Below are positions 4,360 to 40,822 of a stretch of DNA of 41,268 nt, piece after piece. Position 1 is the first letter of the stretch. The number at the start of each line of letters is the position of its first letter. This stretch comes from Holophagae bacterium (lineage in GTDB: Bacteria; Acidobacteriota; Thermoanaerobaculia; Thermoanaerobaculales; Sulfomarinibacteraceae). The notes under the pieces were generated by a model that was not told the DNA's origin, did no database searches, and worked only from the letters and a program-made list of their open reading frames with translations. The stretch is taken from positions 1 to 41,268 of the forward strand of contig JAUXDC010000002.1 in NCBI GenBank assembly GCA_030618605.1. Reading direction: 5' to 3'. A program made the translations under genes and the position numbers.

Positions 4360-4363
4360 CCAG

Positions 4364-4384
4364 GCAATTCGTTTGACGAATTGC
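4364..4384. terminator. Perfect 9-bp hairpin (GCAATTCGT-ttg-ACGAATTGC) between the convergent stops of gcvPB (4359) and the secreted-protein gene (4389)
   Basis: The inverted repeat was read directly. It lies in a 29-nt convergent gap. There is no clear U-tract on either side. Confidence 0.55.
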
Positions 4385-4388
4385 TTGC

Positions 4389-5663
4389 CTACCAGGCCGT
4401 GGTGTCCCCACTCTCGAAGCCATCGGAAAAGATGAGGGACGTCCCGGCGCTCGGCGCCAGAACTGCTTCTTCAATAAATGACGGCGATCCTGGACGGAAG
4501 AGGCCAATCTGTGCGCCTCCGCTCTGGGGTGAGGCGTCTGCGTCAAACCAGAAGTTGTACATCGTGCCCCACCTGAGGGCATTTGCATTCTCGTCGGTGA
4601 AGAAGTCGTCGGTCGACCAAATGACCCGGCCTGCCCCGTTATCGACCGTGATCGTCCAATTCGTCGGATCGTAGGGCTCTCCCGAATGCGAGTCGACATC
4701 GTGAAACCCGGCATTGGTAATGACGGTATCCGCCGCGATCGGAACGGCGAATGACCCCGCACTGCGGTGAGAATTGAGGTTGAACAGGGCGTATTCGTAT
4801 CGCCAGGTTCCGTTTCCGTTGTCCGAGGCCTTGTACGCAAGGTAGAACACGCCCTCACCGCCCACCTCGACCTGTCGAACGGTCACATTTGGATCGACGG
4901 TATTCCAGGCGAAGATCGCAGGCATCCCCTCTATTGTCGAGTCCAAGGGAATCAGTTCGAGGTTCGCTGCCACACTGACCTCGCGGTAGGACGCGTTGTT
5001 AATGCTGTTACCGGCGCCCGCGTCATCTTGGGTTACGTACTGACCTTCGACAAAATAGACCGCCCCTGCATTGGAAGCAGGTGTCACATCGGCAGTGTCC
5101 ACAAGGAGCCGTCCGCTGAGAGTCGTATAGCTGCCACCGTCCGGCTCCGAATGCGGCATGGGATATTCACCGGTGAAAGCGTTGACCTCAGACCGCGGTC
5201 CAAGGCGACTCTGACTGCCGTTGAGCGATGCCCAGTAGGGATCCGAACAACCGACACCCAGTTGCGCTCCACCATTTGGGGGGCTGATGCATGTGTCACA
5301 GGCGTTGCCGTTGATCGACACAAAACCATGTTTGAGCCAGCTCTGCCCCAATTGCTCCAAGCGCCCATCCTTGAGGCGGTAGAGGTTTTGCGCAATGACC
5401 GGGTGTTCATTGTTGCTGCTGATCCATGCGACCGGGTCGTCCCCCCGATTGCAACTCTCCGTGCCGACCGAATAGGCTGAAGTGTCACCGGATGCACCCC
5501 ACCGGTAGGTGTCGAACAGATCAAACACAACAACGTCAGGACCAATAGCCCCCTCGACGTTCGTGGCATCCTCGGCAACTCCCTGGCCGGCGCAAACCAG
5601 GATCAGAGCCACTCCACAGAAGCCCCTGAAAAAGATACCCCGCACACCTTGTTTCGTCGTCAT
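4389..5663 (-). CDS. Secreted protein of unknown function with C-terminal tail ...LIFSDGFESGDTTAW
   Basis: The ORF track gives 4389..5687. GGAGG lies 9 nt before the third Met (nt 5663), giving MTTKQGVRGIFFRGFCGVALILVCAGQGVA|ED, a classical Sec signal peptide. It is Cys-containing and beta-rich, and I recognise no named family. It is the last gene of a 3-gene minus-strand operon. Confidence 0.8.
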   Translation of the reverse strand: MTTKQGVRGIFFRGFCGVALILVCAGQGVAEDATNVEGAIGPDVVVFDLFDTYRWGASGDTSAYSVGTESCNRGDDPVAWISSNNEHPVIAQNLYRLKDGRLEQLGQSWLKHGFVSINGNACDTCISPPNGGAQLGVGCSDPYWASLNGSQSRLGPRSEVNAFTGEYPMPHSEPDGGSYTTLSGRLLVDTADVTPASNAGAVYFVEGQYVTQDDAGAGNSINNASYREVSVAANLELIPLDSTIEGMPAIFAWNTVDPNVTVRQVEVGGEGVFYLAYKASDNGNGTWRYEYALFNLNSHRSAGSFAVPIAADTVITNAGFHDVDSHSGEPYDPTNWTITVDNGAGRVIWSTDDFFTDENANALRWGTMYNFWFDADASPQSGGAQIGLFRPGSPSFIEEAVLAPSAGTSLIFSDGFESGDTTAW

Positions 5664-5727
5664 CAACATCCGCCTCCACTTGAACATTTACTCAATTCTG
5701 CAATGTTCAACACCGCGACCGCCGGCT

Positions 5728-7473
5728 TCATTCCACCAGCACCGTGACCACCGATAGTCCGGCGAGATTCTCCCGGGCCTCGACGTGCTCCGGGTTGATC
5801 TCGAGAGCCTTTTTAAACGCGCCCTTCGCCTGATCTACATCCCCCTCCATCGCGCAAGCAACACCGAAGTTGTAATGGAGATCCGCATTCCCCGGGTGAC
5901 GAAGCAGTCCCCGCCGGAAGACCTCTCGAGCTCTGGAAACATCACCGACCGAACCTAAAAGCGAACCCAGGCTGATGAAGCCCTCCGACACCGCAGGGTC
6001 GAGCTCGACCGAACGGGCGAAGGCCATCACTGCTTCTCGAGGCCTCCCGACTCCGACCAACACTCGTCCGTGCAGCAGATGGACCTCGGAGGCCTTCGGC
6101 TGCACCTTGAGCGCCTGTTCGACTGATGCCAGCGCCACACCCGGCCGACCTTGAAGGAACGCAAACCATCCTGCTTTGAAATGGGACGTAGGATTGGAGA
6201 CCAGACTCCAATGCTGCCCCCACTCGGTGTGATCACTACCCCGTTCAACCAGTTCGGTCTCCTCCCGGGCGTCGAGGGTCCTCCAACCAAGATCCAGAGC
6301 CGCAGCGCGGAACCTAGCGGTCTCGGCGAAGACCATCTCACTCCTGACCTCGTGAAATCGGACCAGAGCACTGTGAACCCAGAGCCCCGCCGCCACCACC
6401 ATCACGAAAGCGAAAACCCAACCGGCTGAAGTCACGCGCCCATCTCGTTTGATCCGAGCGCCGCCGAACCTCAAATTTCGACGACCCGCCAACCGAATCG
6501 AGGTCAGGCTGAGGAATGCCAGGATTCCGCTCAGGCCCAGCGCCAAGAGAAAAGGAATCCGACCATAGAGGCCCCGAAAGGTAGCAAAGGCAAGTACGAA
6601 TGCTGAAGCCAGAAGAACTTCCTCAACCCAACTGACATTCCAGGGCCGACCCGCCGGTGGTCCCTCCACGCGAACCTTCGCTCCAAGCGCCGGCCGGCCC
6701 AGACCTAAAAACAGGGCATCATTGGGACAGGCCGCTACACAATCCATGCATTTCATGCATCCGGAGTCCCGGACCATCTGAAAGTCCCTGACTTCCTCGT
6801 GCACCCGGACATTGGAGGTACACGCGGCGGTGCATCGGGCACATTGGTTGCAGTCGTCGTTGACACGGACCCTCAAGGGCGCCAACCGGTCCGCCGCCCC
6901 GAAGAGCGCGCCATAGGGGCAGGCGTAAGTGCAAAAGCCCTTGGCGCCCAGGACGTACACGATGGCGAAACCGCAGACGGCAATGGTCAAGCCACCTACA
7001 ATCATCCCCGGCATCGAAGCCCAGAGGTTTGAGGTCGTCAAGGCCGTTGTCACCCGCGGGAAGACCCGTCCAACGCCCAGTCGATAGACGAAAGGCCACA
7101 CAAACATGTAGAAGAAGGCGATGACCGGAACCCACCTGAGAAGCCGAGAACGCAACGGCTTTGGGGTGATCCCAACCTTGATCAGCAACCACCGGCAAAG
7201 ATCCTGCATCGCGATGATGTGGCATCCCCAGCCGCAGAAAAAACGGCCGAACACTGCGGTGATCAGTGCCGCCCCCACCAGCAGGATCAGCCCAAGGTTG
7301 ACGACACCGTGTTTCGAGAACTCCATCGCCTCCGACGGCTCGAGACCGGCGATCGTTTTCCCCGAACTGAGCCAATGTGCGATATGAGCCAGGATAAGGA
7401 CGTGGACTCCGACCAGCACACCCGTGCGCCACCTCGAAGGTCTTTTCACGCGGAACTGGGGCGACCTTACCAC
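5728..7473 (-). CDS. Integral-membrane polyferredoxin (NapH/CcoG-like, 2x[4Fe-4S] motifs) with C-terminal TPR domain
   Basis: 581 aa with a GTG start. It has the motifs FFCGWGCH and CTYACPYG plus two ferredoxin motifs, CNQCARCTAAC and CMKCMDCVAACP. About 7 hydrophobic helices are present. The C-terminal ~170 aa are TPR-like (…ADLHYNFGVACAMEGDVDQAKGAFKKALEINPEH…). Confidence 0.85.
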   Translation of the reverse strand: MVRSPQFRVKRPSRWRTGVLVGVHVLILAHIAHWLSSGKTIAGLEPSEAMEFSKHGVVNLGLILLVGAALITAVFGRFFCGWGCHIIAMQDLCRWLLIKVGITPKPLRSRLLRWVPVIAFFYMFVWPFVYRLGVGRVFPRVTTALTTSNLWASMPGMIVGGLTIAVCGFAIVYVLGAKGFCTYACPYGALFGAADRLAPLRVRVNDDCNQCARCTAACTSNVRVHEEVRDFQMVRDSGCMKCMDCVAACPNDALFLGLGRPALGAKVRVEGPPAGRPWNVSWVEEVLLASAFVLAFATFRGLYGRIPFLLALGLSGILAFLSLTSIRLAGRRNLRFGGARIKRDGRVTSAGWVFAFVMVVAAGLWVHSALVRFHEVRSEMVFAETARFRAAALDLGWRTLDAREETELVERGSDHTEWGQHWSLVSNPTSHFKAGWFAFLQGRPGVALASVEQALKVQPKASEVHLLHGRVLVGVGRPREAVMAFARSVELDPAVSEGFISLGSLLGSVGDVSRAREVFRRGLLRHPGNADLHYNFGVACAMEGDVDQAKGAFKKALEINPEHVEARENLAGLSVVTVLVE

Positions 7474-8711
7474 CCCGATGTATTGCCGGACTCAAAGCCG
7501 TCAACGAAGATTGTCGAGGGACTTTCGAAGCGGGACACCGTGCCGCCAAACAGATCGGCCACGTAGACTTCTCCGTCCTCGTCCTCACCAAAAGAACTGA
7601 TGCCGAGGTTGGTGTCCGCCCATAAGACCGACGACCAGACGGCCCCAGGAGTCGCAAACCAGATCTCGCCGGTGCAGTATTCACCGTAAATGTACGTGCC
7701 GTCCAAACCGGCGATGCCGTGACCCCGATAGGCGTAGCCGCCGGTGACCGAGCACCGCCCGTTCAGGTGTTGGTACTCCAGAATCGGATCGACATAGGAA
7801 CCGGAACACCCGGCCGTGTTGTATTCGTGAGTTCCCTCGTAGCACCGCCAGCCGTAGTTCTCACCGCCTGGGCTTGAGGCCGGCTGGTGATCAATTTCTT
7901 CCCACATGTTTTGCCCAACGTCTCCGATGAACAGTTCCCCAGTACGACGGTCGAAACTGAAGCGCCACGGGTTGCGCATGCCGTAGGCCCAGATCTCGTC
8001 ACATGCGCTGCCGTCCCCGATGAAAGGGTTGTCTGAGGGAATCGAATAGTTGGCCTCGAGCCCGCACCCGGTGATCACTCCACGGCCCTTTCGGGTCGCG
8101 CCGTCAACGTCGATGCGCAACATCTTGCCCAGCAACTGCGTACGATCCTGGGCCCGGTTATTCGGGTCGCCGCCCGAGCCCCCATCTCCCATTCCGATGT
8201 AAAGGTAGCCATCCGGGCCGAAATGAATGTCCCCGCCGTTGTGGTTGGAAAAATCCTGGTCGATCTCCAGGATCACGGTTTCCGCCAAATCAGCGATGTC
8301 GGAATTACCGGCAGAAACACTGTAACGGGCGATCCGGGTGCGATCGTCGACACCGCTGGTTGCATCGAAATCATAGGTGTAATTGACGTAGAAAAACCCG
8401 TTGTTCGAATAGTCGGGATGAAACGCCAATCCCAACAGGCCACGTTCTCCACCGCTGAGGACAGCCGAGCTGATATTGAGAAACGGCGTCGGCAACATCG
8501 CGGAACCATCCCAGATTCGAATGACCCCCCCCTGCTCGACGATGAACAGGCGACCGCTGGCGTCACCGGCATGGCGAACGGCCACCGGCGAACTCAATCC
8601 GGAAATCAAGGGCGTCAGGACCAAATCGTCCGGGGGCACTGCCCCTACCGGTCCCGCACAACCAAGAAGAACCACAAGAAAAGATCCGACTGGAAATAGA
8701 CAACGCCACAT
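7467..8711 (-). CDS. PQQ-dependent sugar (glucose/sorbosone) dehydrogenase-family beta-propeller, secreted or lipoprotein; C-terminal tail ...TIFVDGFESGNTSGW
   Basis: Family motifs ERGLLGLAFHPDY, NHNGGDIHFGPDGYLYIGMGDGG, LLGKMLRIDV, AYGMRNPWRFSFD, IGDVGQNMWEEID and ENYGWR are present. The start is chosen at Met41 of the listed ORF (nt 8711): GGAG lies 6 nt upstream and it gives the signal peptide MWRCLFPVGSFLVVLLGCAG with a possible LLGC lipobox. The 7-nt overlap with the downstream polyferredoxin gene implies coupling. Confidence 0.88.
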   Translation of the reverse strand: MWRCLFPVGSFLVVLLGCAGPVGAVPPDDLVLTPLISGLSSPVAVRHAGDASGRLFIVEQGGVIRIWDGSAMLPTPFLNISSAVLSGGERGLLGLAFHPDYSNNGFFYVNYTYDFDATSGVDDRTRIARYSVSAGNSDIADLAETVILEIDQDFSNHNGGDIHFGPDGYLYIGMGDGGSGGDPNNRAQDRTQLLGKMLRIDVDGATRKGRGVITGCGLEANYSIPSDNPFIGDGSACDEIWAYGMRNPWRFSFDRRTGELFIGDVGQNMWEEIDHQPASSPGGENYGWRCYEGTHEYNTAGCSGSYVDPILEYQHLNGRCSVTGGYAYRGHGIAGLDGTYIYGEYCTGEIWFATPGAVWSSVLWADTNLGISSFGEDEDGEVYVADLFGGTVSRFESPSTIFVDGFESGNTSGW

Positions 8712-8793
8712 CACTGACTCCAAGGCAAAGAATTTTCGACATTCTATCACTCTCTCAAGTACGCAAATGACACCGGCCATCAAGAAATCCGCC

Positions 8794-8821
8794 TTCATCC
8801 TTCCTCCTTCCTCCTGTATCC
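8794..8821 (+). repeat. Degenerate heptamer tandem tract TTCATCC TTCCTCC TTCCTCC TGTATCC
   Basis: Read directly. It lies in the divergent intergenic region and ends 8 nt before the cysteine desulfurase ATG. It belongs to the same family as the tracts at 21617, 23221 and 24460. Confidence 0.8.
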
Positions 8822-8829
8822 TGCCCTGC

Positions 8830-10062
8830 ATGACCGAGACGATCTACCTCGACAACAACGCCACGACCCGGGTCGCTCCCGAGGTCCTCGATGCCATGAA
8901 GCCATTTCTGGATGAACTGTATTTCAACCCCTCGTCGGTCTATGAGGCGGCGAGAACACCGAGGGATGCCGTCTCAAAAGCGCGAAAGACGGTGGCCCAA
9001 TCGTTGGGCGCCCGGTCAGACGAGATCCTCTTCACCGGCTGTGCGACCGAGAGCAACAACACCGCAATCTTCGGCACGATTGCCGCCAACCCGGGCCGCA
9101 GACACATCATCACGACCGGGGTAGAACACCCTGCCGTCTTTGAGGTCGCCGGAGAACTCAGACGCCGCGGTTTTGAGGTAGACTTTGTCCCGGTCGACCG
9201 CTCGGGGCGCCTGGACATGGGCGCCTACGTCCGTGCCCTTCGGCCCGACACCCTGCTGGTTTCGGCGATGCACGCCAACAACGAGACTGGAGCGGTCTTT
9301 CCTGTCGCCGATATCGCCCGGATCGCCAAGGAGACCGACCCCTCGGTCGTTGTGCACACCGATGCAACGCAGACCGCCGGCAAACTTCCGTTGGACCTCC
9401 GGAACGACCTCAAACATATCGATCTCTTATCCTTGTCCGGACACAAACTGCACGCCCCCAAGGGCATCGGCGCCCTATTCGTCCGTCGCGGCACCCCCTG
9501 CCGGCCCTTCATGCTGGGCGGCCACCAGGAAGACGGCCGGAGGGCCGGGACCGAGAACGTCGCCTTCATCGTCGGCTTGGCCCGTGCGTTGGAGTTGGCC
9601 GGCGAGCACCACGAACAGGACGAACAGAGAATTCGTAGCCTCAGGGACCGTCTGGAAGCCGCACTGTCCAAGGCCATCCCCTACTCCGAGGTCAACGGCG
9701 GTGAGGTCAAACGCCTCTCGAACACCCTCAACCTGGCAATCCATTTCATCGAAGGCGAGGGCATGCTCTACCAGCTCTCGGCCGAGGGCATCTGCGCCTC
9801 GTCAGGCTCGGCCTGCACCTCGGGTTCGCTGGAACCCTCCCACGTCTTGCGCGCGATGTCGGTCCCCTTCACCGCCGTCCATGGGTCCATCCGTTTTTCA
9901 CTCTCGCGCTACACGACCGAAGCCGAGATTGACAGGGTCATCGAGGTCTTCCCGCCTATCGTCAACAACCTCAGACGTCTCTCTCCCTTCTGGGATGCAA
10001 AGACCAGCGCTCCGCGCCCAGAAGCCGAACCGCTGATGCATCAGACGGAAATGCCGGGATGA
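8830..10062 (+). CDS. Cysteine desulfurase, NifS/IscS family (PLP-dependent)
   Basis: The start is at MTETIYLDNNATTRV, a typical class-V aminotransferase N-terminus; the listed ORF 8476.. is an upstream extension. The PLP-lysine motif is SLSGHKLHAPKGIG and the catalytic Cys loop is SSGSACTSGSLEPSHVL. Confidence 0.92.
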   Translation: MTETIYLDNNATTRVAPEVLDAMKPFLDELYFNPSSVYEAARTPRDAVSKARKTVAQSLGARSDEILFTGCATESNNTAIFGTIAANPGRRHIITTGVEHPAVFEVAGELRRRGFEVDFVPVDRSGRLDMGAYVRALRPDTLLVSAMHANNETGAVFPVADIARIAKETDPSVVVHTDATQTAGKLPLDLRNDLKHIDLLSLSGHKLHAPKGIGALFVRRGTPCRPFMLGGHQEDGRRAGTENVAFIVGLARALELAGEHHEQDEQRIRSLRDRLEAALSKAIPYSEVNGGEVKRLSNTLNLAIHFIEGEGMLYQLSAEGICASSGSACTSGSLEPSHVLRAMSVPFTAVHGSIRFSLSRYTTEAEIDRVIEVFPPIVNNLRRLSPFWDAKTSAPRPEAEPLMHQTEMPG

Positions 10063-34918: not shown

Positions 34919-37900
34919 ATGACACCCTATAATCAATCCGTGACGATCAGACGAACCATCCTGTTGGTCCTCGGGATCATCGCGGCCCTCGTGGTTGCAG
35001 GCATTGCCATCCTGCACCTCTCGTCGTTCCAACGCGGCGTTGCGGAGCGAGTGACGACAGCAATCGAATCGAAGACGTGTCTCTCAGTTGATTTTCAGTC
35101 TTTTGACTATCGCCTGTGGCCCGCAACTCTTGAAGTCCGGGGCATCAGCATTTCGGATCCTCTAGGCCGGTCGCTGACAATTGAGGCCGTCGACGCTTCC
35201 TGGGCGTGGTCCCAGTTGATCGGCGGCACGCCTCGGATTCACCACTTGGCTCTCGAAGGACTCAATGCGGACGCCTTCGCCTTGCCGATGCCCTGTCCCA
35301 ACGATGACGACGGAGGCCCGGAGGCGGGCCCATGGAACGCCCTGGCCATTGACGATCTGACCATCAGCCGAGCCAGGGTCTCTGGGGAGAGTCCCGATTT
35401 GGCATTCTCCTGGACGGGCCTCGAGGCCCAGGCGATGTTGGTCGATCAAAAACTCGGTCTTCGATTGACTGCCGACAGTCTCCATCTTGATCGAAAAGAA
35501 AGGAATCTATTTGTCGGCCCCCTCGAACTCGAACTCCAGGGCTCGGCGAAGTCCATCGAGCTGAGAACCCTGAAAATTTCCAACGGACCCATTCAATGCG
35601 AAGCGACCGGGTCGGCCGCCGGCAACGGTCGGGAGGCGACGGCTCATGTTTCGGCAACGGTGGGCCTCTCAGAGGTCCTCCATTGGTGGGATCCCTCCCT
35701 TGCAGCCCTCGTCAATCCGGAGGGCCCCCTTGGTGTGGTCGCAGATATCGGCTGGAAAGCGGATTCCGGCCTTCGGGCCACAGCACGACTCGACGGCCGG
35801 CCCATCGGCCTGGCCGGTTACACATTCAGCCGGCTGGAGGCAACATATTTGAATGGCCGCCTGACCGCTGAGGCCGCCGATCCCTCATGGGGTCTGGTCA
35901 AGGTGGAATCGGCTGCCGATGGCTTTCTCGAAGTCAACGCCGTGTTGGATGGTGCGATACCCGCACCGGCCCTCAGGCTGGCGCATATCGAGTTACCGGA
36001 GGGCATTCCTGCAGACGGAGAGATTTCAGGAGATCTCCACGTCCGATTCCCTCTTCCGCTCCAGATCGACCGGATGACGGGCTTGGCCGACCTCGAGGCC
36101 CAATGGAAAGGCGGCAGTGCCCACCTCAAGGGAAGCGCGGACCACGGGATTGTGATCGACCGGGCAGACGTCGATATCTTCGGAGCCACCGCTGAGGCGT
36201 CAGGGACCGTCTCCTTCGACGGAAATATCAAACTGACGGGCACGGTCACGGTCCCGGAACCCGGAGAAACCATAGCCCACCTGTCGACTCTCCTCCCTGA
36301 AGTCGGGAACCCGGCCGTCGGTGGAGGTCCGTTGATTGCCGGCGTGACTCTATCGGGCACCGCGGCGGCACCGAGGATTGATGCCGAGATCCACTGGGAC
36401 TCACCCGAGATCCAGGGTCACCAGCTCGAAAACGCCTTCGCCACCTTTCAGGGCACTGCCGATGACATCGACTGGACCACGATGCTCGAAGCCGATAGTG
36501 TTCGGCTCAATGCCCAAGGCAGGGCCTCAATCCGATCCGCCACGGCGGCGGGAGATTGGCAGTTGCAGGCTCCGGACCTCGGCGCCCTCCAGCACACCAT
36601 CGTCATGGCCGATCAATCGGAGATTGCCGGATCGATCACCGGTAACGGCAACTTCAGCGTCGACACGACCGGCTGGCGGGCTTCTGCTCTCCTTGAGGGC
36701 CACGAGATCCAGGCCCAAGGCGTCACCATCCCCCATCTGATGCTTGAAGCCGAGGCAGACCCCAACTGCGTCTCAATCGACACCCTTGCGGCCGAGGTCC
36801 TCGGGGGACACATCGAGGGCTCAGGAACCGTGTGTCCCGCCGGTCTCGACGGCGAGGTCAAGGCGACAATGCAATGGTCCAGCCTGGACCCCTCTCAGAT
36901 TCTCGACACCCTTCCCGAGGCCGCACGGGGACTGATCAGCGGCCGGTTCGACATCAAAGGCCCACTCTCAGACCCGGCCGGGTCAGCCCTGCTCTCATGG
37001 GAAACGACAACCGATGAAGCTCCGCTGGAAAGAGCCGGTGTTCAGGCTCACCTCGAGCACGGCTTGATTACGGTAGTCTCCGACCGGCTCGAGAGCATTT
37101 CCGGGCCCTTGACCCTGCGAGCCGATCTGCCGATGGGCAATGTCCCCAGACCTGGGGGACTCTTTCCGACTGCCCCATCCGGACCGTGGCGGGTCACTCT
37201 CAGCGGCCATGACCTCGCGCTGGCACCCCTCCTCGCCCATTTCGATCGAGAGGATCTCAAACCGGCCGGCAGCTGCGATCTGGACCTCCGGACCTCATGG
37301 TTCCCCGATCGGGGCGGCCTTCCCGAGATCCACCTGGAACTGACCAATTTCGAGATGGCGATTGCCGAGCGCCGAATGAGAGCTCAATCACCCATCCGGT
37401 TGGTTCTTGACGACCGCGGGATCGTCTCTGCCGATATCAATCTCGAGGGTGACCTCAGTCAGTTCGTCGGCAGCGGCTCGTACAATCTGAAAACTGAAGA
37501 AATCGACGCCTCGATCGAAGGATTGTTGGATCCGGACCTGGCTCTTCTCTCTCCCGTTCCCATGACGATTCACCGACCCATGACAATCGAGGGCCGGATC
37601 GAGGGCCCTGCAGGATCCTGGGTCGGAAACCTTCATCTGGACCACGAAGGCGGATCGATCGAGATGCGCGATCCCCCGCTGGAAATCACCGATGCCTCGC
37701 TCGAGGCACGCTGGAGCAACAGAGGTCTGGAAATCACCGAGGGTTCGGCAAACGTCAACCGGGGGTTTGTCACCTTGGGCGGTGCCTGGGATCCGAAAAG
37801 CGGCCAGGGCATCATTGCCGAACTGTTAGACGTGACTACCCTCCTTCCAGGAGGCATCGTCACGCGCTGGGACGGCGTCATCGCCCTGGAACCCGCGTCT

Positions 37901-40822
37901 GACCGCCTGATGGTGATTGTCGGCAATCTGGACCTGAAGTACGGGATATGGGACTACCCTTTTGACCTGGGAGCCGCCTTTCGAGGCGGGGGCGATGAGG
38001 CCGTCCCCGGCGCCGACGACATCACCCACCGTATCGGACTGGATGTGGAGGTTCGCGGCGGCGGCGGCGTCACGGTCGACAACAATCTGGGACAATTCGG
38101 GGTTCGCTGGAATACGCTGGAAATCGGCGGTACCGTCGCCAAACCCAGGATCATCGGAGACCTCAACCTTCTTCCCGGCGGCGTGCTGATGGCCGCCGGC
38201 CAACCGATCAAGATTCGAAGAGGTCTGGTTCAATTCACCGGCGACCCTCTGACCGACCCCGTACTTGAGGTAATACCGGAAGACCGGGGCGGCACGATGT
38301 CCGGGGACCTCGATGCCTCGGGGAGCGCATCACAACAGCAAGCGTCCAATCTGGCTGCCGCGGGTCTGGCTTCCGGCCTCGGAGCCGTCTTCGGCCTGGA
38401 GAACACCACGATCAGGCCCGAAGAAATCGCCATGGAGACCGATGAAGACACCAGCACCGACTTCTCGATCGGCCAACAACTGACACATAATACCGCCCTG
38501 TTCTTGACGACCGATTTACGGAACAGCCAGAAGCGTACGACGCTGCTCCAACTGTGGCGCCTCCCCTCTTTTCCCGGTTTGACCTTTCAGGCCCTGACCC
38601 GGACCGACCCGGGCGAAGCAGACGTCAAACTGCTGCAACGATTCAGCTGGGGAGGCACCCAGGCCACAGACGATCAACCCCAATTGCACAAGGTGTCCCT
38701 CGAGGGGGAGTGGCCGCGGTCAAAACGGAAACTCCGGAAGGCAACCGGCCTGGTTCGTGACCAACCCTGGGACCCGTTCTTTCTTTTCCTCGGAGACATC
38801 CGGCTGGAAAAGAAACTCACTGAAGAAGGGTGGCCGGAGGCACGGGTCGACAGCCGGGTCGAAGGCACTCCCGAACGCCCCATCGCGGTCTTTAGCTGCT
38901 CTGCCGGCCGACACGTTGAGTTCATCTTCGAGGGCGACTCGATTGGCAAGAGTCTCCGATCGAGTCTGCGGCCGCTCTACCGTTTCCCCCCATTTGAGCG
39001 AACTGCCCTGGCCGAAATGGAACGTCTGGCCACACGACACCTGTGGGCCGCAGGATACCCTGATGCCACAGTCAACATTATCTCGGATGGAGAGGGTCAG
39101 GTAACGGTCTCTGCAGAAAAAGGCCCGGAGACCACCCTGCACGGCCCCTTTCTCGAGGGAGTGCCTGATGCCGCCGCTCCCTCTCTGATGGCGCTGCTCA
39201 GCCAGTCGACCGAGTTGACCGAGATCTCCAAGGATCCCACTCGGGCCGAGCGGGTCGTTCGGCGAACCCTTGCGACCGCCGGATATCGGGACGTGCGCTC
39301 AGTCGAGAGCTGGACCGAACCCACAGTCGACGGCGCCGTCGAGGTCCACCTCCGGGTCGATCCCGGGCAGCAGGCCAGGGCCGTTCGCGTGGATCTTGTC
39401 GGCGGCGACCCCCTGGGACTGACCGATGCAGAGGACTTTGCCATCCGACCGGATATGATCCTGGACCGCGGAACAATCGGCACAGCGGTCGCCTCGCTCC
39501 GAAGATCCTACCGGGAACAAGGCTTCACCGGGGTTCGGGTCCGATCCCAGATTTATGAATACGACGACCAGCAGTGGGCCGTCCTCTTGACTCTCGACCC
39601 CGGGGAAACCTCCATCATCGACCGGGTTGAGATTTCCGGGAGGAGACATCTCAGCGAGAAGTCCCTTCTCAAGGACCTCCCAATTCAACCCGGCGAGTTG
39701 TTTCTGTTGGACGATTTGGACGACAGCATCGCCCGTCTGGCTACCTTCGAACCGGTCGAACGCGTGACGGCAACGACCCGGCCCGACGGCGATCGGGTGG
39801 TCGTCGACCTCGATATTATCGAGAAGGCACGCTGGACTGGGGAGGTCGGCGGCGGTTGGAACTCCGACCGTGGGGCCACCGCGCGTGTGGGCATCAACGA
39901 CAACAATCTTTTCGGACGGGGCTTCCGCCTGGGTCTTCGGGGCCGGATGGAGCAGGACTTCCTCCAGGGCCGCATCATGCTGGCGCTGCCCCCCCTGCCT
40001 GGTGGACGTTTTTCGGCCAGCCTCAACGCCAGCTATACCGAGGACGTGCTCCCGGCGGAATTCGAGAGCGACATCGTCATCAACGAGAACATCCGCGCCG
40101 CCGCCATAGAGGGGCACTACCAGCTCAAACCCGGCCTCTGGACCCGCGGCTACTACCGATTCACCCGAACACGAACCTTCGAGAAGGACTCAACCGATCC
40201 CTACCCCTTGGACATCACCATCGATCTTGCGGTGCTCGGCGGGCAGATTGTTGTCGATCGACTGGACAATCCCTTCGACCCGCGCCAAGGCTTCTACACC
40301 GCCCTCGACCTCAGCTGGGCCGGAGAAGCAATCGGTTCGGACAAGGAAAACATCCGGAGCCTCCTGACGGGTTCCCTCGCCATGGAACCTCGCAACGGTT
40401 GGACCTGGTTTCAGAGTCTCCGTCTGGGCGCCGCCAAACCGCTCAACGGCGTATTGGATAGCCAGTCCCGTTTCTTCGCCGGCGGCTCCGCATCGATCCG
40501 CGGCTTCAAGCTGGACAGCGTGGGTCCGACCGAAACCCTGGGCGGCATCACTATCTATGCTGGCGGCGAGGCGCTCTTCGTCCTCAACGAGGAACTGCGC
40601 TTCCCACTGTGGCAGAGTCTAAGGGGCGCAGTCTTCGTCGATACCGGACAGGTGTGGAAGACCTGGTCGGACGCCGATTTTGACCTCTCCGTCGGCGCCG
40701 GCATCGGTCTGCGATGGAGCACTCCGGTCGGGCCCTTGTGGGTCGACGCCGCGTGGCCCGTCGCCAACCCCGGGGAGAACTCCGGGGCGAGGTACAGCTT
40801 TGGGATTGGCCGGACGTTTTAG
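34919..40822 (+). CDS. tamB: Giant envelope protein: TamB/AsmA-like module (N-terminal anchor plus DUF490-type C-terminus) fused in frame to a POTRA repeats plus Omp85 (TamA/BamA-like) beta-barrel
   Basis: It is an uninterrupted 1,967-aa ORF. The N-terminal anchor is ILLVLGIIAALVVAGIAILHL. The TamB-type C-terminal region is ...GVTVDNNLGQFGVRWNTLEIGGTVAKPRIIGDLNLLPGGVLMAAGQPIKIRRGLVQFTGDPLTDPVLEV... through ...LLQLWRLPSFPGLTFQALTRTDPGEADVKLLQRFSW (aa 1244). The linker GGTQATDDQPQ follows. POTRA-like units come next (…IIDRVEISGRRHLSEKSLLKDLPIQPGELF…). The Omp85 barrel carries FFAGGSASIRGF, GAGIGLRWSTPVGPLWVDAAWPV and the terminal GIGRTF. Confidence 0.85.
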   Translation: MTPYNQSVTIRRTILLVLGIIAALVVAGIAILHLSSFQRGVAERVTTAIESKTCLSVDFQSFDYRLWPATLEVRGISISDPLGRSLTIEAVDASWAWSQLIGGTPRIHHLALEGLNADAFALPMPCPNDDDGGPEAGPWNALAIDDLTISRARVSGESPDLAFSWTGLEAQAMLVDQKLGLRLTADSLHLDRKERNLFVGPLELELQGSAKSIELRTLKISNGPIQCEATGSAAGNGREATAHVSATVGLSEVLHWWDPSLAALVNPEGPLGVVADIGWKADSGLRATARLDGRPIGLAGYTFSRLEATYLNGRLTAEAADPSWGLVKVESAADGFLEVNAVLDGAIPAPALRLAHIELPEGIPADGEISGDLHVRFPLPLQIDRMTGLADLEAQWKGGSAHLKGSADHGIVIDRADVDIFGATAEASGTVSFDGNIKLTGTVTVPEPGETIAHLSTLLPEVGNPAVGGGPLIAGVTLSGTAAAPRIDAEIHWDSPEIQGHQLENAFATFQGTADDIDWTTMLEADSVRLNAQGRASIRSATAAGDWQLQAPDLGALQHTIVMADQSEIAGSITGNGNFSVDTTGWRASALLEGHEIQAQGVTIPHLMLEAEADPNCVSIDTLAAEVLGGHIEGSGTVCPAGLDGEVKATMQWSSLDPSQILDTLPEAARGLISGRFDIKGPLSDPAGSALLSWETTTDEAPLERAGVQAHLEHGLITVVSDRLESISGPLTLRADLPMGNVPRPGGLFPTAPSGPWRVTLSGHDLALAPLLAHFDREDLKPAGSCDLDLRTSWFPDRGGLPEIHLELTNFEMAIAERRMRAQSPIRLVLDDRGIVSADINLEGDLSQFVGSGSYNLKTEEIDASIEGLLDPDLALLSPVPMTIHRPMTIEGRIEGPAGSWVGNLHLDHEGGSIEMRDPPLEITDASLEARWSNRGLEITEGSANVNRGFVTLGGAWDPKSGQGIIAELLDVTTLLPGGIVTRWDGVIALEPASDRLMVIVGNLDLKYGIWDYPFDLGAAFRGGGDEAVPGADDITHRIGLDVEVRGGGGVTVDNNLGQFGVRWNTLEIGGTVAKPRIIGDLNLLPGGVLMAAGQPIKIRRGLVQFTGDPLTDPVLEVIPEDRGGTMSGDLDASGSASQQQASNLAAAGLASGLGAVFGLENTTIRPEEIAMETDEDTSTDFSIGQQLTHNTALFLTTDLRNSQKRTTLLQLWRLPSFPGLTFQALTRTDPGEADVKLLQRFSWGGTQATDDQPQLHKVSLEGEWPRSKRKLRKATGLVRDQPWDPFFLFLGDIRLEKKLTEEGWPEARVDSRVEGTPERPIAVFSCSAGRHVEFIFEGDSIGKSLRSSLRPLYRFPPFERTALAEMERLATRHLWAAGYPDATVNIISDGEGQVTVSAEKGPETTLHGPFLEGVPDAAAPSLMALLSQSTELTEISKDPTRAERVVRRTLATAGYRDVRSVESWTEPTVDGAVEVHLRVDPGQQARAVRVDLVGGDPLGLTDAEDFAIRPDMILDRGTIGTAVASLRRSYREQGFTGVRVRSQIYEYDDQQWAVLLTLDPGETSIIDRVEISGRRHLSEKSLLKDLPIQPGELFLLDDLDDSIARLATFEPVERVTATTRPDGDRVVVDLDIIEKARWTGEVGGGWNSDRGATARVGINDNNLFGRGFRLGLRGRMEQDFLQGRIMLALPPLPGGRFSASLNASYTEDVLPAEFESDIVINENIRAAAIEGHYQLKPGLWTRGYYRFTRTRTFEKDSTDPYPLDITIDLAVLGGQIVVDRLDNPFDPRQGFYTALDLSWAGEAIGSDKENIRSLLTGSLAMEPRNGWTWFQSLRLGAAKPLNGVLDSQSRFFAGGSASIRGFKLDSVGPTETLGGITIYAGGEALFVLNEELRFPLWQSLRGAVFVDTGQVWKTWSDADFDLSVGAGIGLRWSTPVGPLWVDAAWPVANPGENSGARYSFGIGRTF

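Follow-up and report, generated by a model that had tools for sequence, protein, structure and literature searches.

Three co-directional genes on the minus strand of a contig from a Holophagae bacterium (GTDB order Thermoanaerobaculales, family Sulfomarinibacteraceae; GenBank assembly GCA_030618605.1, contig JAUXDC010000002.1) encode two putatively secreted proteins that both end in IFxDGFESGxTxxW and, between them, a membrane polyferredoxin with a C-terminal tetratricopeptide repeat (TPR) domain. The whole stretch that we analysed, positions 1 to 41,268 of this contig, is called the window below. The question that the locus raises is what the shared tail is for. A first-pass annotation of the window had proposed that the tail is a docking peptide for a periplasmic TPR domain of the polyferredoxin, through which both tailed proteins would be recruited to a transmembrane Fe–S conduit. 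We refer to the three proteins as GSDH (a secreted protein with a pyrroloquinoline quinone (PQQ)-type beta-propeller), PF-TPR (the polyferredoxin) and P3 (a secreted all-beta protein), and to individual fetched loci by their L numbers.

Much of that annotation has stood up: the tails, the polyferredoxin, the predicted periplasmic placement of the TPR domain and the link among the three genes. The docking step has not. We lean, by a small amount, towards a reading in which the tail would be a new type of sorting or anchoring tag used throughout the lineage, and the operon a separate extracytoplasmic redox or cofactor-maintenance module with P3 as its hub.

The shared tail within and beyond the operon

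GSDH ends in ...STIFVDGFESGNTSGW and P3 in ...SLIFSDGFESGDTTAW, each directly before its stop codon. On the minus strand, the GSDH tail, TIFVDGFESGNTSGW, spans 7470-7514 and is followed by a TAA stop at 7467-7469, and the P3 tail, LIFSDGFESGDTTAW, spans 4392-4436, with its TAG stop at 4389-4391. When all six frames of the window were scanned, long open reading frames (ORFs) had GFE[ST]G only at these two C-termini. The core of the tail can be written [IL]-F-x-D-G-F-E-S-G-D-T-x-x-W, and most lineages continue with S-x-[TV]-x-P-COOH. Among the 120 best P3 homologs, 89 have D[GD]FE within 20 residues of the end, with the tail 0-6 residues from the C-terminus: 51 end at W+5 (usually ...WSxxxP), 15 at W and 15 at W+1. 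The closest relatives of the window protein (at least 69% identical) all end at the Trp. This conservation, with the recurrence of the tails in related operons, confirms that the two outer proteins share a tail, and puts the sharing far beyond chance. The tail has neither a transmembrane helix nor a basic cluster, which bears out the earlier remark that it lacks these parts of the known sorting signals; it is net acidic (D, E, D), and no more than 5-8 residues, mostly polar, come after the Trp.

The tail is widespread outside this operon. We scanned metagenome contigs, which carry no taxonomic assignment, with the DNA pattern DGFExGxxxxWxxxxP plus a stop codon. The sample is of the P-ending form alone and comprises at least 120 loci averaging ~5 kb; the counts that follow are among the matches listed, and ORFs in all fetched loci were called as longest ORFs. 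The loci hold at least 129 tail-ending ORFs. With the tail removed, BLAST sorts the 90 full-length ones into 60 clusters, and 67 of the 90 have a signal-peptide-like N-terminal hydrophobic stretch (signal peptides and topology are heuristic or model-based predictions throughout this work). The full-length ORFs give the consensus [IL]F.DGFESGDTSAWS.TVP-COOH, and positions that the pattern left unconstrained are also conserved: F at -17 (76/86), S at -11 (61/86), T at -8 (66/86) and S at -4 (72/86). Pfam domains of the hosts include Beta_helix, LVIVD, Trypsin_2, FG-GAP, lactonase propellers, M14, S8 and C10 peptidases, Cu-oxidase and LRR. NCBIfam matches for 74 of these proteins include the choice-of-anchor Q, B and J families, myxosortase- and rhombosortase-dependent M36 peptidases and a MYXO-CTERM family, with no NCBIfam model common to more than six of the 74. 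Two of the loci carry a tailed GSDH homolog without the polyferredoxin. Tails on unrelated proteins also turn up near P3 itself, with four such ORFs in 320 kb of tail-type (Acidobacteriota-type) loci versus none in 886 kb of Planctomycetota-type loci; the tail-bearing neighbours of P3 loci include an MtrC-like multiheme cytochrome, an S8 subtilase, a 497-residue protein and a 1530-residue FG-GAP protein. In the sub-lineage of the window the tail is shortened in all four families that bear it, stopping at W, W+1 or W+3 (the 497-residue protein at W+3 and the FG-GAP protein at W+1). Such shortening in four unrelated families of one lineage fits a single shared reader of the tag.

In distant P3 homologs, mainly from Planctomycetota, other endings stand in the tail's place: dockerin-like ...DLLxLLxAWGPCP or ...GCP tails, ...CP tails and others, a swap that matches the "choice of anchor" pattern. 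The dockerin-like tails, which are probably the GC-type dockerin-like modules (as NCBIfam names them) of Planctomycetota surface proteins, resemble ours in their position on P3 and GSDH homologs, in being acidic and in lacking a transmembrane helix, and in L035 and L058 a separate GSDH and its neighbouring P3 share one of them. They differ in length (~40-60 residues, as opposed to 15-20), in their DxDxDG-type loops and terminal Cys, and they have no sequence similarity to the DGFESG tail. A further ending, ...YYLVRA.N.CP...G...G..CP-COOH, is found on P3 proteins from Acidobacteriota of the Polarisedimenticolaceae/Mor1 type (L031, L071, L072, L078; protein P0118), and the PF-TPR proteins beside these lack one TPR repeat, corresponding to residues ~522-549 of the window protein.

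No Pfam model matches the tail in the window proteins at E <= 0.01, and nothing relevant came up when the motif strings were looked for in the full-text literature; with no Pfam model, NCBIfam model or paper found that covers it, the tail is previously undescribed. Three simple explanations for it were tried and rejected. Read-through of the stop codon does not explain the tail, since TGA, TAG and TAA all occur after it in a normal mixture and the next in-frame stop lies a median of 34 codons further on. An outer-membrane-protein beta-signal, which would end in an aromatic residue, is at odds with tails that mostly run past the Trp and with hosts that are soluble-domain proteins. The C-terminal domain of the type IX secretion system is ~70-100 residues long, and was set aside because the tail has only 15-20 and because no such model is prominent among the NCBIfam matches.

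The motif is also found inside proteins. Of 1.84 billion representative proteins searched with a profile of the tail, 489 matched at E <= 1e-3, and giant proteins in which the motif occurs 2-8 times predominate among the best 150 of these. In that best 150, 238 of 305 motif positions are internal, 39 are N-terminal, just after the signal peptide, and 28 are C-terminal. (A version of the profile padded to 40 residues matched only ORFs of 24-70 residues, mostly fragments, and was uninformative about host families.) Each ~220-290-residue repeat of the giant proteins begins with the motif (...F.DGFESGDLSAWS..TDGGDLSVS...), and in protein P0241 it is position 1 of a weak match to the polysaccharide lyase family PF14099 (E 5.6e-5; 23.6 bits, below the 29.9-bit cut-off). 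The tail could accordingly be viewed as the orphan first beta-strand of a jelly-roll domain of the ConA or polysaccharide-lyase type, either kept for strand addition to surface proteins or left over as a remnant, and protein P0263, in which one domain of the internal type is followed by a second, terminal copy of the motif, can be cited in its favor. We nevertheless consider this origin improbable as a full account. A remnant would not be expected to keep a fixed length and a ...WS.TVP-COOH ending across ~60 unrelated families, nor to form tandem units without an intervening domain, as in the small secreted proteins that carry one or two C-terminal units of 21-25 residues each; and we identified no acceptor domain lacking its first strand.

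The TPR domain and the docking proposal

PF-TPR is a 581-residue protein encoded at 5728-7473 on the minus strand; it starts with GTG and overlaps the GSDH stop by 7 nucleotides (7467-7473). Its Pfam matches (Fer4_5, Fer4_9 and many TPR families), its motifs and its AlphaFold2 (AF2) model all agree with the first-pass description of a NapH/CcoG-like polyferredoxin with two ferredoxin motifs and a TPR domain. More than 3695 homologs were found, under source names such as "polyferredoxin/TPR" or "tetratricopeptide repeat protein". The membrane and Fe–S core covers residues 1-371 (6361-7473). Hydropathy gives seven transmembrane segments, of which the first four, at about residues 12-37, 60-75, 112-134 and 156-175, are placed by hydropathy and AF2 together. 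A di-cluster Fe–S domain, predicted to be cytoplasmic, follows at residues 179-258, and the last three segments lie at about 282-299, 308-330 and 349-371, with the last helix of the AF2 model running from 349 to 384. The cluster motifs are CNQCARCTAAC (CxxCxxCxxxC, C208-C218; 6820-6852), in which the Cys residues are invariant in 61 homologs, and CMKCMDCVAACP (CxxCxxCxxxCP, C239-P250; 6724-6759), which is itself invariant in the same set. The protein also has a CX3CH motif (C80-C84-H85) and a CX3CP motif (C181-C185-P186).

NapH has four transmembrane helices, two CX3CP motifs and two C-terminal [4Fe-4S] motifs in the cytoplasm, an orientation in which both the N-terminus and the Fe–S domain are inside. 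PF-TPR has the first four helices and both cluster motifs, followed by three more transmembrane segments and the TPR domain (residues 386-581; 5731-6318). With the N-terminus and the Fe–S domain in the cytoplasm and seven transmembrane segments, the TPR domain is predicted to face the periplasm, as the first-pass annotation had it from counting helices. The net charges of the successive loops, taken over 61 homologs, alternate as this topology would have it: +6.0, -1.2, +5.4, -1.5, +4.0 (the Fe–S loop), 0 (a 3-residue hairpin), +6.4 and 0 (the first 40 residues after the seventh segment). The AF2 model (predicted local distance difference test score, pLDDT, 90.6) likewise has seven transmembrane helices and then 12 TPR-type helices, ending at residue 580. 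Foldseek matched this model to TPR proteins only (consensus TPR, OGT, MamA and YrrB), with no relative of the membrane core.

PF-TPR resembles NapH/MauN/NosH and NosR in its transmembrane core, in having CX3C(P/H) motifs near the cytoplasmic loops and two CxxCxxCxxxC(P) clusters, and in its link to periplasmic redox enzymes. It differs from NapH/MauN in its three extra transmembrane segments, its predicted periplasmic TPR domain, a first motif that is CX3CH, the lack of a NapG-like partner, and scores far below the family cut-offs (72.3 versus 213 bits for TIGR02163; 69.7 versus 234 bits for the NapH equivalog NF007013). For a periplasmic C-terminal domain added to such an Fe–S membrane core there is a precedent in CcoG. 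This membrane protein carries two [4Fe-4S] clusters, has an Ig-like domain at its periplasmic C-terminus and is encoded in a ccoGHIS context (PMC7558416). PF-TPR shares the core and this add-on logic with the CcoG/FixG cupric reductases (of which YccM is a short form), but its add-on is a TPR rather than an Ig-like domain; no CcoG model is among the NCBIfam matches listed for it, and it falls outside CcoG/FixG.

A periplasmic TPR domain speaks for docking, as do the almost invariable adjacency of PF-TPR and tail-bearing P3 in Acidobacteriota, the low-confidence, unpacked state of the tail in the P3 model, and the fact that no homolog of the polyferredoxin carries the motif itself. A weaker point is that the TPR positions W436, Y534-N535 and R567-E-N-L570 are kept in all 12 of the polyferredoxins beside tail-type P3 proteins, and are degraded, or one repeat is deleted, in 7 of the 8 beside P3 proteins with other tails; this contrast is confounded by phylogeny, the core identities being 53-61% versus 42-49%. 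The wider distribution of the tail argues the other way. Tails end proteins of ~60 unrelated families, and a homolog of PF-TPR or of P3 is found in none of the 120 listed metagenome loci. Conversely, tail-bearing P3 or GSDH occurs without a polyferredoxin within about 5-10 kb in L006/L012, L052 and L092, and the polyferredoxin keeps its TPR domain beside P3 proteins with dockerin-like or CP tails (L046, L056, L071, L031, L078).

When Hop binds EEVD (Hsp70-90) or PEX5 binds PTS1, what is recognised is the carboxylate with the last residues of the peptide. Our locus is like these pairs in that its TPR domain is predicted to share a compartment with a conserved C-terminal peptide, but here the distance of the conserved core from the free carboxylate varies among lineages (0, 1, 3 or 5 residues), and the tag is not limited to proteins with a TPR neighbour. 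The first-pass annotation had also named, as a finding that should count against docking, frequent occurrence of the motif at internal or N-terminal positions without a link to TPR partners; with 238 internal and 39 N-terminal positions out of 305 in the best 150 profile matches, the proposal fails by that standard. We therefore regard docking of the tail on the neighbouring TPR domain as distinctly unlikely, and a shade more so than an orphan strand.

A broader version, in which the tail would be a general ligand for periplasmic TPR domains in sensing or docking, including the TPR sensors of Ser/Thr kinases associated with extracytoplasmic function (ECF) sigma factors, seems very improbable to us: pairs of such a sigma factor (PF07638) with a kinase-transmembrane-TPR protein do lie beside tail genes, kinase ORFs number nine in 638 kb of tail loci versus three in 1.39 Mb of P3 loci, and PF-TPR with P3 would be a second context joining a periplasmic TPR to a tagged protein, but the kinase background is not taxon-matched and its counts are very few, adjacency is nearly automatic in ~5 kb loci centred on a tail gene, these modules are expanded in the phyla concerned, and the kinase TPRs (of the TPR_10/TPR_12 type) differ from those of the polyferredoxin. 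As an observation in its own right, the sigma factor and kinase pair is the sole recurrent neighbour among the metagenome loci listed (L102, 289-891 and 898-3939; L135, 1032-1613 and 1657-4437; L192, 6691-7215 and 3958-6687; also L107, L110, L132, L165 and L189).

P3, GSDH and the polyferredoxin as a module

Setting the tail aside, the association of the three genes is itself conserved. PF-TPR lies directly upstream of a P3 homolog in L001/L002 and L003, which were context look-ups made from P3, and in about 16 Acidobacteriota loci among 80 genome loci a PF-TPR gene precedes one, two or three P3 paralogs in tandem, all of them tailed. P3 homologs likewise follow all three of the polyferredoxin homologs that were picked solely for their long contigs. 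The complete GSDH–PF-TPR–P3 operon, with both tails, recurs in L007, L210 and L211. Fusions extend the link: in nine ORFs of Planctomycetota-type loci a P3 domain, at about residues 220-650, and a GSDH domain are part of one protein, and in L056 such a fusion is followed by a PF-TPR gene. By synteny and these fusions, and as far as sequence can speak to it, GSDH, PF-TPR and P3 are functionally linked, and it is the synteny of P3 with PF-TPR together with its adjacency or fusion to GSDH that makes P3 the hub of a conserved envelope module.

P3 itself is a 424-residue protein encoded at 4389-5663 (minus strand), from a start supported by homologs (MTTKQ...). The ORF listing extends it to 5687 (4389-5687), an upstream ATG that homologs do not conserve, and this choice affects the spacing in the operon: the first-pass annotation was right about the 7-nucleotide overlap between GSDH and PF-TPR, but its 40-nucleotide gap between PF-TPR and P3 holds only for the 5687 start, and becomes 64 nucleotides from the conserved start at 5663. 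A putative Sec signal peptide, MTTKQGVRGIFFRGFCGVALILVCAGQGVA, judged by eye and by heuristic, occupies 5574-5663, with cleavage predicted before ED; residues 1-28 have a pLDDT below 50 in the AF2 model. No Pfam or NCBIfam model matches P3, although it has more than 4500 relatives, mostly in metagenome-assembled genomes of Acidobacteriota (Thermoanaerobaculales, Holophagae, Thermoanaerobaculia). Its AF2 model (pLDDT 87) has two beta-sandwich domains, and the low pLDDT of the tail (~52) suggests that the tail is not packed on the body. Foldseek found nothing above a TM-score of ~0.2 for this model, and we did not take as homology the partial, Ig-like PDB matches at that level to SdrG and AP-2 mu; a P3 profile run against PDB sequences found no relative either. 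His, Asp, Tyr and Cys positions are conserved among P3 homologs. A relationship to lytic polysaccharide monooxygenases was considered and rejected, the mature N-terminus lacking His1. P3 often occurs as two or three tandem paralogs behind a single PF-TPR, each with its tail (L020, L021, L022, L052, L086, L208, L209); in L022 the P3 tails run on for a further ~12 residues (...WSGIISSRPAGQATR).

GSDH is encoded at 7467-8711 (minus strand). The longest ORF begins at 8831 (7467-8831), and homologs favor the Met at 8711 (MWRCLF...); its counterpart is the first residue of the L007, L210 and L211 orthologs, all of which share the tail. By eye and by heuristic, a putative Sec signal peptide, MWRCLFPVGSFLVVLLGCAGPVGA, lies at 8640-8711 and would be cut before VPP, so that both outer proteins have signal-peptide-like N-termini, as annotated; the LLGC of the GSDH peptide can alternatively be read as a lipobox, and the L211 ortholog (MKRCLVLCGLVSIVLFGPVKPGVA, then LPPDD) has no Cys there. 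GSDH is a bona fide member of PF07995 (143.2 bits versus a gathering cut-off of 25, E 1.5e-41, residues 80-394), and it scores below the cut-off for TIGR03606 (77.6 versus 434 bits). A PQQ-type dehydrogenase role is suggested by family membership. With the soluble quinoprotein glucose/sorbosone dehydrogenases of the E. coli YliI/Asd type it shares PF07995 and predicted export; it differs from them in its C-terminal tag and in being operonic with P3, or fused to P3 in Planctomycetota.

Other redox proteins lie close to some of these operons. Upstream of PF-TPR and P3 in L001 (5008-8205, plus strand) is a 1065-residue multiheme cytochrome with ten CxxCH motifs and LVIVD repeats. This cytochrome, from a Thermoanaerobaculia-like locus, ends in a hydrophobic segment and RRLR, a classical tripartite-style anchor rather than a DGFESG tail; in L009 it is the adjacent MtrC-like cytochrome that bears the tail. 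Small genes with faint YHS or CusF-like matches lie near P3 or PF-TPR in L004 (9315-9809), L006 (12545-13051) and L208 (16175-16618). By analogy with CcoG, a cupric reductase, they hint at a possible copper link for the module. There are no cco genes in the 41 kb window, and we saw no link to cbb3 oxidase genes.

The gene content around the operon varies locally. In the window P3 abuts gcvPB directly (4360-4390), whereas in L210 (4501-6725) a PIN/PhdYeFM toxin-antitoxin pair and a 497-residue tail-bearing gene are inserted between the two. L211, from a close relative of the window organism, has PqqD-like, radical SAM/SPASM and transglutaminase-like genes, of the type found with ribosomally synthesized and post-translationally modified peptides, just upstream of GSDH–PF-TPR–P3 (924-3515); these are absent in the window. 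Elsewhere in the window, a single 1967-residue ORF (34919-40822, plus strand) has a C-terminal POTRA region and Omp85 barrel and, at its N-terminus, a weak, below-cut-off YhdP match (PF13116, 28.6 versus 46 bits); if its N-terminal part is TamB/AsmA-like, it would be a TamB–TamA type fusion in one polypeptide.

A candidate sorting tag and what it would mean

Characterised small C-terminal sorting domains are tripartite, with a signature motif, a transmembrane helix and a basic cluster (bioRxiv 10.1101/2023.06.07.544157). Like the signals of the LPXTG/sortase, PEP-CTERM/exosortase, GlyGly-CTERM/rhombosortase and MYXO-CTERM/myxosortase systems, the DGFESG tail is a short signature at the extreme C-terminus (0-6 residues past the Trp, with P-COOH in 86 listed full-length ORFs). 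Like them, it recurs within one lineage on many Sec-exported proteins that are otherwise unrelated (the 90 full-length ORFs form 60 clusters), on choice-of-anchor hosts, and with several tagged genes per region. Unlike them, it has no transmembrane segment and no Arg/Lys cluster, ending 0-5 residues past the Trp (consensus end W-S-x-T-V-P).

If the tail is a sorting or anchoring tag, as we are inclined to think, it would be an autonomous unit of ~15-20 residues that Thermoanaerobaculia/Holophagae-type Acidobacteriota put on many unrelated Sec-exported proteins, marking a common extracytoplasmic destination or retention and read by one shared partner. On homologs elsewhere, its slot would be filled by GC-type dockerin-like, Cys-Pro, PEP-CTERM or MYXO-CTERM tails. 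GSDH and P3 would then share the tail on account of a common destination rather than as a code that the TPR domain next door alone can read. Within the module, P3 would act as the hub, almost always directly after the seven-helix polyferredoxin and adjacent or fused to the GSDH propeller or beside multiheme cytochromes. As NosR, NapH and CcoG suggest by analogy, the polyferredoxin might connect an electron pool in the membrane or cytoplasm with the partners in the periplasm, where its TPR domain could serve P3 as a scaffold. If the two are in contact, the binding surface need not be the tail.

Several points weigh against this interpretation. There is no sign of tail cleavage, nor of where the tagged proteins end up, and we found no cognate sorting enzyme, intramembrane protease partner or receptor for the tail. 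Without a transmembrane helix or basic cluster, its mechanism would have to differ from that of every characterised tripartite signal; and since a larger internal domain has the same motif as its first strand, the tail could act by strand pairing instead of sorting. The metagenome loci are short, so that PF-TPR may be encoded elsewhere in the same genomes, and the listed matches sample only the P-ending form. As for the module, a redox role for P3 is read from its neighbours, P3 having no recognisable cofactor motif, and the predicted cytoplasmic placement of the Fe–S clusters leaves no obvious direct electron path to periplasmic partners.

A bolder and more specific proposal, to which we give somewhat less than an even chance, is that DGFESGDTxxW(SxTVP) represents a new class of C-terminal sorting or anchoring signal without a transmembrane helix, carried by dozens of secreted proteins per Thermoanaerobaculia/Holophagae-type genome and recognised by a receptor such as a periplasmic TPR domain or a strand-accepting beta-sandwich, with PF-TPR, P3 and GSDH forming a separate new redox system in two phyla. 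C-terminal tags set the destination of bacterial surface and secreted proteins, and to our knowledge every well-studied class combines a transmembrane helix with a processing enzyme of its own, either intramembrane or membrane-anchored. A short, acidic tag on dozens of families without such a helix would, if the proposal is right, imply a different recognition mechanism, and would be of immediate use in exoproteome prediction for a phylum that is abundant in the environment yet poorly cultured. The tight pairing of PF-TPR with P3, the thousands of members in each family and the P3–propeller fusions define a large uncharacterised envelope module, which is a target for working out the role of CcoG/NapH-like polyferredoxins with periplasmic add-on domains.

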